The notes under the pieces were generated by a model. The model saw only the letters and a list, made by a program, of their open reading frames with translations, made no database searches and was not told where the DNA came from. A stretch of DNA of 64,000 nt from a virus, in the IMG/VR virus record IMGVR_UViG_3300025874_000006, positions 10,352 to 74,351 of that record; one strand, 5' to 3'. The position numbers and the translations under genes were made by a program. Of this stretch, positions 9,898-28,715 are shown piece after piece (positions within the stretch are counted from its first letter, which is position 1; each line of letters opens with the position of its first letter).

Positions 9898-10871
9898 TAG
9901 GCCACCTCTTGTTCCAACTCGTCCCAACCGTAGTCTTCGCCTTCCATACCGACCACTGAATATTCGGTCACACGTTTCTCAAAGAAGTTGTCGTGTGATG
10001 CTCCGTTCAGTACCCAGTCCAACCACGGTAGTGGGTTATTCTTTTGTTTGAACAGTGGTTTCATACCCAACTGAAGTAGACGGCGGTCAGCAATGTGACG
10101 GATGTAGTCGCGAACTTCTTTCTTGGTTAGGCCCTGTACACTGTTACCTTTAAACGCAAGTTGGATGAACTTGTCTTCTAGTTTGACAGCGTTCTCTGCC
10201 ATCTGGTAGATTTTAGACTTTAACTCATCATTAACAATACGTGGATGTTCATCTGTGAACTCACGGAACAACTTTGCGTTGCCCTGTACGTGAATGGTCT
10301 CATCTCGGATAGACCACTCAACAATCGTTGCCATACCCTTCATCTTTCCAAAACGTTGGAAGTTAAGTAACATGACGAATGATGCGAATACTGACATACC
10401 TTCGTTGAACACCGACTGTGCCAACGCAAGGGCAAGACCCATATGACTAGAGACGTTACCGTCCTTCATAAAGTCAATCTTATCTGCCATCTCAGAGTAT
10501 TCCAAGAACGCGTGGTAGTCTTCGTCAGGTAGACCTAGAGTGTCATTTAACAGGGCGTACGCACGTTGGTGCACCCCTTCACGGTTCGCAAACGATGCTA
10601 ACATATTGCGGACTTCGTTATTCTTGAACTTCGGTATTAGAAGTTCGTGGTAGTTCTCTCCTACCTGTACGTCCGACTGTGTGAATAGTCGCAGTACGTG
10701 TGTGATGAATAATTTTTCATCTTCTGACAATTTAGTCTTCCAGTCTTGAACATCTTCAGAGAGTTCTGCCTCATCTTCAATCCAGTGGATTTCTTCGTGC
10801 TTCTTTGTCAGTTCAACCGCCCAAGGGTACATGAACGGTTTGTAAGTTTCTGAAAGCTTTAGTAACGACAT
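9897..10871 (-). CDS. nrdB: Ribonucleotide reductase class Ia beta subunit
   Basis: FTQSD, EGVHQRAY, EGMSVFASF, RDETIH, NFFEKRVTEY. Confidence 0.97.
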   Translation of the reverse strand: MSLLKLSETYKPFMYPWAVELTKKHEEIHWIEDEAELSEDVQDWKTKLSEDEKLFITHVLRLFTQSDVQVGENYHELLIPKFKNNEVRNMLASFANREGVHQRAYALLNDTLGLPDEDYHAFLEYSEMADKIDFMKDGNVSSHMGLALALAQSVFNEGMSVFASFVMLLNFQRFGKMKGMATIVEWSIRDETIHVQGNAKLFREFTDEHPRIVNDELKSKIYQMAENAVKLEDKFIQLAFKGNSVQGLTKKEVRDYIRHIADRRLLQLGMKPLFKQKNNPLPWLDWVLNGASHDNFFEKRVTEYSVVGMEGEDYGWDELEQEVA

Positions 10872-24628: not shown

Positions 24629-24636
24629 TATTTATA
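24629..24636 (-). promoter_or_regulatory. T4-type late promoter TATAAATA heading the internal-protein block
   Basis: Exact consensus about 40 nt before ATG 24588. Confidence 0.75.
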
Positions 24637-25351
24637 TGTCAAGAACATTTGCACTATTTTCTTCATTATATTGGGCAATAGTGTCGCGAAGTGGACGTAC
24701 CCAGTTGTCACGATGTTCAATAAACACTTGAGGTTCGTGATTATCAACGGAGATAATTGTAACGAGTTGAGTGATGGGCATTCCAGTGCGTTCTTCCCAC
24801 ATGATGGAATATGCAGACTCTTGCATGAAGTAGTTCTTAATCCAGTCAAGACGTTTGGGTTTCATAGAAGTCTTGTAGTCGATGATAGACAATTTACCAT
24901 CGAAGACGCCTACGCAATCCACACGGCCGGCAACACCCAGATGGGTAGAGTACAGTGGTGCTTCTTGAGCATGAACGACAGAAAGACGTTCGTCAAGGAT
25001 TGGTTTAATCTTTAGGAAGGAATCTATTAGGTCAGGAGTACGTTTGGTCAACTTCTGTTCACCAGTGTCGATATCCATAGCCATGTACTTGTCATAGTCT
25101 GGATCGTTGTTGACATACTGTTCACAGATTTCGTGAACCGCAGTACCACGCGTAGATGCGCGATAGGAGACACGGTTCGCTTCTTTCTCACCAACACGAG
25201 CACGCCATTTAGCAATGGAGTCGCGAGAGAGAATAGAAAGAACAGTAGTGATAGAAGGTAAGGTGATACCTTCGGGGGTTTCGTATTGACGACCAGTGTC
25301 CGTAGTTACGGCAGTCATCTCAGTCAGTTCCACGGGAACATGTTTAAACAT
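24632..25351 (-). CDS. PD-(D/E)xK (Cas4/RecB-like) exonuclease
   Basis: PSITTVL, RGTAVH, AGRVDC, IIDYKTS, QESAY. Confidence 0.88.
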   Translation of the reverse strand: MFKHVPVELTEMTAVTTDTGRQYETPEGITLPSITTVLSILSRDSIAKWRARVGEKEANRVSYRASTRGTAVHEICEQYVNNDPDYDKYMAMDIDTGEQKLTKRTPDLIDSFLKIKPILDERLSVVHAQEAPLYSTHLGVAGRVDCVGVFDGKLSIIDYKTSMKPKRLDWIKNYFMQESAYSIMWEERTGMPITQLVTIISVDNHEPQVFIEHRDNWVRPLRDTIAQYNEENSANVLDI

Positions 25352-25536
25352 AATATAATCCAATTCAATTTAATATACCCCTATTATAAAGGATTTGAAT
25401 GGATTTGTCAATAGGTAAATGTGACTAATTTTACTATATTGGTCAAATAAGAATCCCCACGAATACGGGGGCTCTTGTAGGGTACTTTATGTCTTGGAGA
25501 ACCTTAACTTACTGCTCTGGCATTTTTCTCATGCAC

Positions 25537-25561
25537 AAAAAAACCGCCCAAAAGCGGTTTC
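25537..25561 (-). terminator. Intrinsic terminator
   Basis: GAAACCGCTTTTGGGCGGTTTTTTT. Confidence 0.85.
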
Positions 25562-25634
25562 TTCGATGTTACTTGTCGGCTAAGCTTTCTACAGCGTCGT
25601 GAGACTGGAGGCCGTCCCAGAACTCTCACCAGAT
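25537..25634 (-). ncRNA. Putative ~98-nt small RNA with its own promoter and terminator
   Basis: TTGACT-17-TATAAT at 25641-25669; GTGAGA/TCTCAC plus CTGG/CCAG hairpin; intrinsic terminator at 25537-25561; no ATG in the transcript. Confidence 0.65.
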
Positions 25635-25665
25635 GCCCTAATTATAGGCTTTGATAGCAGACGAG

Positions 25666-25728
25666 TCAATCACCGCTGAGAATAGCGGCAGTCATTTCAG
25701 TCAAAGGTATAGGGTCGTGTGTAAACAT
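25666..25728 (-). pseudogene. 20-codon remnant of the exonuclease 5' end
   Basis: MFTHDPIPLTEMTA vs MFKHVPVELTEMTA behind an identical promoter and leader. Confidence 0.7.
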
Positions 25729-25827
25729 AATATAATCCAATTCAATTTAATATACCCCTATTATAAAGGATTTGAATGGATTTGTCAAGGGTGATAGGTG
25801 ACCAATTTAGGACTGTTGGTCACGTAA

Positions 25828-26020
25828 GAATCCCCACGAGTACGGGGCTCTTTATGGTACTCTTATGGTTTGGTGAACCTTAACTTGCGAGAGGTTTAAT
25901 TCTCTGCTGCTTGGCATTTTTAACATGCACGTTTTGAGAGATCGCAGTTATCAAGTTAGTGCGCAATGTTAGGCGCAATGTTCATCTCTTTTAGTACCGA
26001 GCCCCGTACAGTGGGGAAAT
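25828..26020 (-). ncRNA. Putative ~190-nt structured RNA directly after tRNA-Ala
   Basis: Ends pair: TCCCCAC-T-GTACGGGGCTC-GGTACT with AGTACC..GAGCCCCGTAC-TC-GTGGGGA; inner stems TGAAC/GTTCA and TAACTTG/CAAGTTA. Confidence 0.6.
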
Positions 26021-26094
26021 TGGTGGAGGAACGGGGAATCGAACCCCGATCGACGCCGTGCAAGGGCGCAGTAATCCCGTTATACTATTCCCCC
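26021..26094 (-). tRNA. tRNA-Ala(UGC)
   Basis: Cloverleaf, G3:U70 pair, CTTGCAC loop, encoded CCA. Confidence 0.92.
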
Positions 26095-26504
26095 AATAAT
26101 GCTATTACTTCTTCCTTGTATTTACTATGAAACATTTCATGATGATTTGGACATAATGGTATAAGGTTATTTATATCATTGTTATGATGGTTCTCATCCA
26201 TATGATGAACCACCACAATCTTATCAAAACCACATATCCTACATTCTTTAGGATTATGTCGAAAACATAGAGTTCTATAGTTAGTAGCGTTTTTATTCCA
26301 ATAGTCTTGTCTATTATTGGCACAACTTCTACTACAGAATTTAGATTCTGTCACTTTCTTGGTGAGTGCTCTACCGAATACGGTATATGATTCTCCGCAC
26401 CTAACACAGTCTTTACTATGTTCTTTTTCTTCACCAAATCTTTTATTGTAAGCAGCTGTTTGTTTTTGTTTATACTCTTCAGTATGATAACGACCATTAT
26501 TCAT
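26085..26504 (-). CDS. HNH homing endonuclease with zinc fingers
   Basis: CxxC, FCSRSC, CRICG, VHHMD.NH.NN...NL..LCPNHH. Confidence 0.88.
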   Translation of the reverse strand: MNNGRYHTEEYKQKQTAAYNKRFGEEKEHSKDCVRCGESYTVFGRALTKKVTESKFCSRSCANNRQDYWNKNATNYRTLCFRHNPKECRICGFDKIVVVHHMDENHHNNDINNLIPLCPNHHEMFHSKYKEEVIALLGE

Positions 26505-28529: not shown

Positions 28530-28565
28530 AATATAAGAGCCTCTCATAACTCTTTTCAATTGTAG

Positions 28566-28656
28566 TGGCGGAGAGGGTGGGATTTGAACCCACGATACGC
28601 TATTAACGTATGCCAGTTTTCAAGACTGGTGCATTCAACCGCTCTGCCACCTCTCC
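28566..28656 (-). tRNA. tRNA-Ser(UGA)
   Basis: Long variable arm, CTTGAAA loop, CCA; promoter TTGACA-17-TATCAT at 28668-28696. Confidence 0.95.
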
Positions 28657-28715
28657 ATTTACTACGTATGATACACTAATAATTACTGCTTGTCAACCCT
28701 TTTTATAAAAAAGTT

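Follow-up and report, generated by a model that had tools for sequence, protein, structure and literature searches.

A small RNA gene that a marine T4-like phage acquired from the bacterial locus of a MazF-fold protein: a candidate mimic of an RNA antitoxin

Introduction

The lytic phage PhiTE can escape abortive infection by means of pseudo-ToxI, an RNA that copies an RNA antitoxin of its host (PMC3475682). In one escape mutant of PhiTE, which arose under laboratory selection, ToxI had been taken from the host locus by recombination (Blower et al. 2012, PMC3475682). In both ToxIN and AvcID, the shut-off of transcription by the phage depletes the antitoxin RNA and frees the toxin (PMC3475682, PMC10511110). 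Here, we describe a small RNA (sRNA) gene of about 98 nt in the IMG/VR virus record IMGVR_UViG_3300025874_000006 (151 kb), which comes from a marine T4-like phage. The sRNA gene lies between two copies of an early-promoter region and, judging from its sequence, was acquired from a bacterial locus where it follows the gene for a long protein with a MazF fold. We analysed 64,000 nt of the record (positions 10,352 to 74,351; hereafter, the window). The genes around the cassette are all on the minus strand.

The bacterial locus resembles type III toxin-antitoxin systems in that the gene for a predicted endoribonuclease adjoins a structured, pseudoknotted non-coding RNA, on plasmids and in defence islands, and in that this RNA is conserved together with the gene. 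(For brevity, we will call the gene for this putative toxin the toxin gene.) Unlike in the type III systems, a coiled coil and an additional N-terminal domain accompany the MazF fold of the protein, which has no sequence match of the ToxN type, and the RNA is downstream, is unrepeated, and has its own promoter, which overlaps the stop codon of the toxin gene. The hallmark of ToxIN, CptIN and TenpIN is a tandem-repeat array upstream of the toxin, with a terminator between the two, and a repeat scan showed no tandem repeats here. Such an array is dispensable, as the antitoxin of AvcID, AvcI, is a single sRNA (PMC10511110). Nor does the protein belong to the ToxN/AbiQ, CptN or TenpN families: the only Pfam match was to PemK_toxin, PADLOC found nothing, and Foldseek found MazF. 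The databases currently annotate the protein as a type II toxin of the MazEF/PemIK kind, and it does share the central MazF fold with them, including a conserved Arg and Thr/Ser at what are probably the catalytic positions. In contrast to MazEF/PemIK, the conserved neighbour of the gene is an RNA, and the protein is three times the length of MazF. No gene for a MazE/PemI-type protein antitoxin was conserved next to the toxin gene in any of the loci that we examined. Because we tested for the defining features of ToxIN, CptIN, TenpIN and MazEF and did not find them, we do not consider the locus to be a member of any of these.

On the phage side, PhiTE has a 36-nt tandem repeat of ToxIN, while the RNA that we describe is a single pseudoknotted unit with a proposed function, and its partner is a MazF-fold protein. 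Also, the PhiTE escapes were selected in the laboratory, while this RNA occurs naturally in many phage lineages and is often found inside tRNA arrays. It is homologous to a host RNA, which we take to be an antitoxin. A different comparison is with the PeSL mobile regulatory cassettes of T4-type phages, which were reportedly described by Arbiol and colleagues in 2010 and in which crossovers at repeated early-promoter sequences are reported to move small modules from one phage genome to another. Our case differs in that just two copies flank a single insert and in that the cargo is a host sRNA gene instead of a phage open reading frame (ORF).

Results and Discussion

The sRNA gene was acquired from a bacterial locus

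We scanned viral, metagenome and genome contigs for exact patterns from the body of the RNA and found it in many unrelated contexts, including metagenome contig L100, which matches the window across the entire cassette. The features of the acquired DNA are:

25522-25690, minus strand: the tract from the host (169 nt), which shares 99.4% identity with L100
25666-25728, minus strand: chimeric ORF of 20 codons, with 14 phage exonuclease codons followed in frame by the last 6 codons of the host toxin gene and its stop codon
25641-25669, minus strand: the sRNA's own sigma-70-type promoter, TTGACT-17-TATAAT, which matches the consensus at 11 of 12 positions
25537-25635, minus strand: predicted sRNA of about 98 nt, with an intrinsic terminator
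about 25564-25537, minus strand: the intrinsic terminator (a hairpin and a T-run)

In L100, the matching tract directly follows an ORF of 339 amino acids (aa). The phage tract opens with the final 7 codons of this toxin gene (...AAILSGD; 21 nt) and its stop, and continues with the promoter, the RNA, the terminator, and then 15 nt past the terminator. Because the tract in the phage carries the end of a host ORF and its flanks, the transfer was from host to phage, and the source is a bacterial locus comprised of a gene for a long MazF-type endoribonuclease and a downstream sRNA. Copies of the tract that are 82-83% identical follow the same gene in two metagenome-assembled genomes (MAGs). One of these is from Alcanivorax, with the copy on a contig of 217 kb; in the other, the contig ends within the toxin gene, so that only its last 93 nt remain. 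The offset of the sRNA promoter from the toxin stop codon in the window equals that in the loci of bacteria and plasmids, with the -35 box overlapping the stop. In the phage, it is the stop of the chimeric ORF that overlaps this box.

The original prediction, which was made from the letters of the window and its open reading frames, had placed a second promoter, an RNA of about 98 nt, and a terminator between the two repeat copies and had proposed that this was an acquired, self-contained sRNA gene driven by two tandem promoters. The first claim holds, and the second is supported by a bacterial counterpart that extends into a protein-coding gene. The size of the insert needs to be corrected: the unique piece of 149 nt between the copies is real, but the foreign tract is 169 nt (25690-25522) and overlaps both junctions via short homologies. 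At the left junction, TGCCG is common to exonuclease codons 13-14 and the toxin gene. At the right junction, the terminator is followed by 15 nt of host sequence, 13 of which are the same in the phage spacer (homeology), exactly at the start of copy A. We propose that the capture would have occurred by illegitimate recombination at these two short homologies between two copies of the phage genome. Since the insert came to be flanked on either side by the promoter region of the exonuclease, this gene keeps a promoter downstream of the imported terminator.

The flanking copies are different phage alleles, and their promoter core is a crossover point

On the minus strand, the order is tRNA-Ala, spacer, copy B, the unique piece, copy A, and the exonuclease gene. 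The two copies and their surroundings are:

26021-26094, minus strand: tRNA-Ala(UGC), the upstream neighbour (ARAGORN and Rfam tRNA)
25686-25930, minus strand: copy B, 245 nt (repeat search and our own comparison), with the 3' half of a conserved spacer region that resembles an RNA, a hairpin (25847-25832), promoter P_B, a leader, and 14 exonuclease codons
25788-25760, minus strand: early promoter P_B, within copy B
25309-25536, minus strand: copy A, 228 nt (repeat search and our own comparison), with a terminator-like hairpin (25470-25455) and promoter P_A (25411-25383); the internal hairpin is missing
24632-25351, minus strand: intact exonuclease gene, 239 aa (phrog_298, E 3e-74)

Overall, copies A and B are about 83% identical, and an exact block of 67 nt is common to both (25788-25722 = 25411-25345). 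This block spans a promoter that matches the consensus at 12 of 12 positions (TTGACA-17-TATAAT), the leader, and the start codon and first codons of the exonuclease. The two repeat units with their identical core, and the 14 exonuclease codons in copy B, are thus as first described. The intact exonuclease gene is driven by P_A. The exonuclease shares 72% identity with its counterpart in phage C48C1 (Kyanoviridae), and relatives are found in hundreds of marine viral contigs. In relatives with an upstream tRNA, the spacer from the tRNA to the exonuclease is 224-391 nt, while it is 669 nt in the window and in just one other contig (L004 = L097, from another sample), so the single-copy state is the common one.

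It had been supposed that the flanks of the two copies diverged after a single duplication. We aligned both copies with the single-copy relatives and obtained a different picture. Copy B has an internal hairpin, as do L002, L008, L011 and L017, and its N-terminal codons (MFTHDPIPLTEMTA) are of the type found in L008, L011 and L015. Copy A lacks the internal hairpin, as do L005, L018, L019 and L055, and its N-terminal codons (MFKHVPVELTEMTA) are of the type found in L002, L003 and L005. Given this pattern of alleles among the relatives, we reject divergence of the copies in place. Furthermore, the flanks cannot have diverged after the capture, because the host tract still has 99.4% identity to its source, as compared to a difference of about 17% between the flanks of the copies. 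By this alignment, the copies are not duplicates that have decayed but alleles of different phage lineages, whose promoter core was homogenised. The capture either joined two different genomes of phages, or recombination later replaced one copy. The exact identity across 67 nt is best explained by gene conversion.

The suggestion that recombination could take place at the 67-nt cores is borne out by L004. This contig is 99-100% identical to the window from 28351 to 25352 and then just 65-88% identical from the start of the exonuclease onward, so that the switch falls at the core of copy A (25352-25411). This implies that the promoter core is a real crossover point and that the cassette is found in two downstream backgrounds. 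(Within L004, copy B differs from copy A at two core positions.)

Could the duplication instead be an artefact of assembly, with two strains joined via a shared sRNA sequence? The copies are different alleles, as a chimera of two strains would give. We nevertheless consider such an artefact very improbable. A second sample yielded an assembly with exactly this architecture (L004/L097), although the left half of L004 is nearly identical to the window, which tempers its weight as a second assembly. Also, a chimera would require two strains that each had the host tract, at different sites, and a podovirus (L083/L094, described below) has the same layout of an insert flanked by a duplication.

In bacteria, the RNA constantly accompanies a MazF-fold protein

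The 339-aa protein from L100 matches Pfam's PemK_toxin at the cut-off (residues 132-212), and searches with PADLOC and NCBIfam gave nothing useful. An AlphaFold (AF2) model built from 45 homologues (predicted local distance difference test, pLDDT, of 88.5) has a mainly-beta N-terminal domain (residues 1-100), a central barrel, and a long C-terminal coiled coil. The top Foldseek matches of the barrel are all MazF (probability 1.0, template modelling score (TM) 0.65-0.75). In an alignment of the homologues, HKRR (141-144) and TS (162-163) are invariant. These positions probably coincide with the catalytic Arg and Thr of MazF. From the fold and these motifs, it is likely that the protein has RNase activity.

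This family is small and uniform: of 1.84 billion representatives, it accounts for 174 clusters at 50% identity, and nearly all members are 300-350 aa long. We identified 82 homologues of the 339-aa protein. The distribution of the family is sporadic (Alcanivorax, Shewanella, Marinomonas, Vibrio, Proteus, Stutzerimonas, Roseibium and Dyella), and the protein was present in 1 of 400 sampled Gammaproteobacteria. In Alcanivorax, the toxin gene is part of an island that follows guaA and also encodes a resolvase and a RES-domain protein. On plasmids, its neighbours include AbiTii (on a 7-kb Pectobacterium plasmid), S-4TM effectors (Rahnella and Raoultella), and Tox-REase-5 (Acinetobacter). Thus, the surroundings of the toxin gene are mobile or defence-related.

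We found 16 plasmids with homologues of the toxin at 28-36% identity. No protein-coding gene was conserved beside the toxin gene in the loci that we fetched. The upstream neighbours vary by locus (guaA, DUF6500, a hypothetical protein, a divergent gene for an SOS-response peptidase, or a Tn3 transposase), and downstream of the plasmid toxin genes there is a gap of 216-521 nt without any annotated gene. In plasmids from Pectobacterium, Serratia, Rahnella, Pantoea and Raoultella, where the toxin homologues are 30-36% identical, this gap holds a homologous promoter-sRNA-terminator unit. Its promoter overlaps the toxin stop, and its RNA has a stem-loop at the 5' end, single-stranded segments that are conserved, and a terminator. 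In L100, L089 and L088, and in all 5 of the RNA-bearing plasmid loci that we fetched, the toxin gene is immediately followed by the RNA. When we used the Rahnella RNA as a blastn query, 15 plasmids matched, and 13 of these bear the toxin gene.

The RNA is found without the toxin on two plasmids, L128 (NZ_MF788070.1) and L127 (NC_014842.1): in one of them IS5 lies in the place of the toxin gene, and in the other, where the sRNA is beside a HigB module, no toxin was detected. Another plasmid (L112) has a toxin gene that is truncated by an insertion sequence and has lost the sRNA. In this small sample, we found no intact toxin gene that lacked a small transcription unit downstream. This asymmetry, small as the sample is, is what would be expected if the RNA were the antidote.

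Distant homologues of the toxin on plasmids from Acinetobacter (L108:3478-3589) and Shewanella baltica (L113:2420-2720) also have a promoter-to-terminator unit downstream. Our model R1 of the RNA does not detect these two units. The one from Acinetobacter has a similar stem-loop by eye, and, from their sequences, both may be diverged versions of the partner RNA. Surveys of genomes showed that both the protein and the RNA are rare and yielded no new contexts: the RNA was present in 1 of 401 genomes of the order. (A second match to the RNA, in L106, was rejected as due to chance, as it lies in an ankyrin-repeat gene.)

Covariation supports a pseudoknotted 5' domain

Besides a conserved single-stranded segment (GACGCUG), the sRNA has two structural elements:

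25629-25599, minus strand: 5' stem-loop of the sRNA
25614-25611 with 25580-25577, minus strand: pseudoknot, with loop CGGC pairing to GCCG

We aligned 20 sequences of the 5' domain of the RNA, including host, plasmid and phage copies. Across the stem-loop and the pseudoknot, 96.2% of the cells of the alignment are paired, as compared to 33-58% with slid partners. Compensatory changes are found in 9 of the 13 pairs, and the observed values were reached by 0 of 500 shuffles. In the pseudoknot itself, 2 of the 4 pairs covary: a G-C pair has become U-A in two of the phages, while a C-G pair has become U-A in two of the plasmids. Additional viral copies from a search with model R1 supply more variants of the stem. 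Homology of the phage RNA to the host RNA is also shown by a covariance model score of 66 bits. Rfam searches of the window, host loci, plasmids and cultured phages gave no family for the RNA even at permissive thresholds, with E > 0.9 for the best of the matches that overlap it. No CRISPR repeat-like feature was found, and an RNA anti-CRISPR role, which was among the functions originally suggested, has no support.

As a control for an antisense (type I-like) mechanism, we compared the RNA to the start region of the toxin gene and to the entire toxin mRNA. The complementarity was not above that of shuffled controls, and there was no conserved site, so direct binding of the protein by the RNA is more likely than antisense action. 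The same result bears on another explanation, which is that the sRNA is a trans-acting regulator, or else a required cofactor, guide or substrate of the nuclease, and that phages use it to reprogram host expression or to misdirect the nuclease. The bacterial RNA ends in a Rho-independent terminator and U-tail, as do many Hfq-binding sRNAs, and it has long invariant single-stranded segments that could be seeds. However, most phage copies have no terminator or U-tail and contain only the 5' pseudoknot domain. Furthermore, the plasmids with just the RNA, and the lack of intact toxin genes without a downstream unit, fit an antidote better than a cofactor. Overall, a regulatory or cofactor role seems unlikely to us, and the RNA's constant association with the MazF-fold protein in bacteria makes an antitoxin decoy, which was also suggested originally along with a mimic of a host sRNA, the best-supported reading of the phage sequence.

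Diverse phages carry the RNA

Marine phage contigs carry 69-133 nt of the RNA at 94-100% identity and with at least 6 different pairs of junctions. The only part that is common to all of these contexts is the body of the RNA (25635-25567 in the window). PHROG matches mark four of the contexts as phage: L084 (portal and terminase), L093 (tail and virion), L096 (replication) and L098 (HNH endonuclease). (L099 gave no PHROG match, and the L101 contig was left out of the scan.) In a T7-like podovirus (L083:3652-3784 and L094:4711-4843), the RNA lies between the portal and scaffold genes and is flanked by a duplicated start of a gene for a small basic protein (MPYG...), so this insert has the same layout as the one in the window.

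When we compared positions 25200-26000 of the window to cultured phages with megablast and blastn, there was no match; the link to cultured phages appeared only with the enterobacterial version of the RNA as the query. With that query, 24 records of cultured phages carry positions 3-67 of the enterobacterial RNA (its 5' ~65 nt) at 84-98% identity. They include Demerecviridae, Vequintavirinae, Stephanstirmvirinae and Tevenvirinae. In 10 of the 10 cultured records that we examined, the RNA is inside a tRNA array and on the same strand as the tRNAs, and several of the copies in IMG/VR are also within tRNA arrays. The cassette in the window is at the edge of the phage's tRNA region, with tRNA-Ala upstream. 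In Raoultella phage Ro1 (L116:1501-1565) and Erwinia phage Hena1 (L117:1501-1565), the RNA is unannotated and ends one base before tRNA-Asn. This suggests that it is released by tRNA processing, in which case RNase P would set its 3' end.

The hosts of these 24 phages are from Klebsiella, Pectobacterium, Erwinia, Raoultella, Pantoea, Enterobacter and Acinetobacter, and all of these genera except for Erwinia have plasmids that bear the toxin gene. Neither Escherichia nor Salmonella is among the hosts of the 24 records. The RNA was absent from 5,426 complete E. coli genomes, as was the toxin gene at the DNA level. The toxin gene itself was found in 0 of 50,697 phage records.

These observations bear on the simplest explanation for the insert, which is that it is neutral debris of host DNA, left by illegitimate recombination and without any function in the phage. 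The insert does include useless toxin codons and host flanks, and junctions with microhomology are typical of accidental joins. But debris would not explain why the same RNA body is found in at least 6 marine junction contexts and in 24 cultured records from several taxa, why compensatory changes preserve the fold within the phage copies, or why the toxin gene is in no phage record. Also, the cassette is 99-100% identical across two backgrounds that differ by 12-35% just downstream. We think that there is little chance that the insert is debris.

A proposed role in blocking abortive infection

We believe that the RNA is probably a type III-like RNA antitoxin that was captured as an anti-defence mimic, analogous to the pseudo-ToxI of PhiTE. 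In uninfected cells, the sRNA would bind directly to the MazF-type nuclease and keep it inactive, as in type III systems. If the antitoxin RNA is short-lived, then the shut-off of host transcription by an infecting phage would deplete it and free the nuclease. The phage in the window would make its RNA early, both from the RNA's own host-type promoter and by read-through from the early promoter in copy B, with transcripts ending at the host terminator; in other phages, the RNA would be made from tRNA operons. Either way, the phage would keep the antitoxin supplied, so that the nuclease would stay blocked and, with it, the abortive-infection defence.

A broader proposal, to which we incline with somewhat less assurance, is that the long MazF protein and the pseudoknotted sRNA form a previously undescribed abortive-infection system of Proteobacteria with an RNA antitoxin, and that many families of phages counter it by carrying the 5' domain of the RNA, commonly among their tRNA genes.

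Several points weigh against these proposals. We infer both the toxicity of the protein and its neutralisation by the RNA, and our sample comprises only 16 plasmids and 3 contexts from bacterial chromosomes or metagenomes. A single RNA unit with its own promoter lies downstream of the toxin gene, instead of an upstream array of tandem repeats. PADLOC does not have any model for the 339-aa protein, and the protein's uncharacterised N-terminal domain (residues 1-100) could be a built-in regulator. The expression of the sRNA in this phage rests on predicted promoters. Finally, the z-score for folding the single sequence is unremarkable (-0.94), so the structural support for the RNA comes from covariation only.

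We searched the literature and found no description of the protein-RNA module or of the phage RNA, but most subscription journals were outside the scope of the search. If our proposals are correct, then orphan "type II PemK/MazF toxins" would become a protein-RNA defence module, whose RNA partner is in no database. Also, the capture of RNA antitoxins would be natural and repeated, whereas the idea has rested mainly on laboratory escape mutants of one phage. The range of natural capture would include marine myoviruses and podoviruses as well as cultured phages of Klebsiella, Raoultella, Pectobacterium, Erwinia, Pantoea, Enterobacter and Acinetobacter. Conserved but unannotated RNAs in phage tRNA arrays would have a concrete function, and part of the role of those arrays would be to deliver anti-defence RNAs that are not tRNAs. 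The window itself would preserve a fresh capture event with both junctions intact, and near-identical host tracts of this kind would link uncultured phages to their hosts. The cultured phages and the plasmids make our reading testable at the bench.

Other features near the cassette

Between tRNA-Ala and the promoter of the exonuclease, there is a spacer of about 190 nt (25831-26020, minus strand) that is conserved among the relatives. One hairpin in it shows compensatory variation or is missing altogether, and another, which resembles a terminator, is at its end; copy A starts inside this spacer. From its sequence, the spacer looks like a stable non-coding RNA that is co-produced with the tRNAs.

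At 28542-28668 (minus strand), there is a sub-threshold match to the sX4 sRNA of Rfam (52 bits, as compared to a gathering score of 70). Since this match overlaps tRNA-Ser, it is probably false and derives from the tRNA.

Just upstream of tRNA-Ala, an ORF of 139 aa at 26085-26504 (minus strand) encodes an HNH endonuclease (phrog_1271, E 1.5e-13). HNH genes are also found beside the RNA in L098 and near the RNA in Hena1 and P7_Pc.

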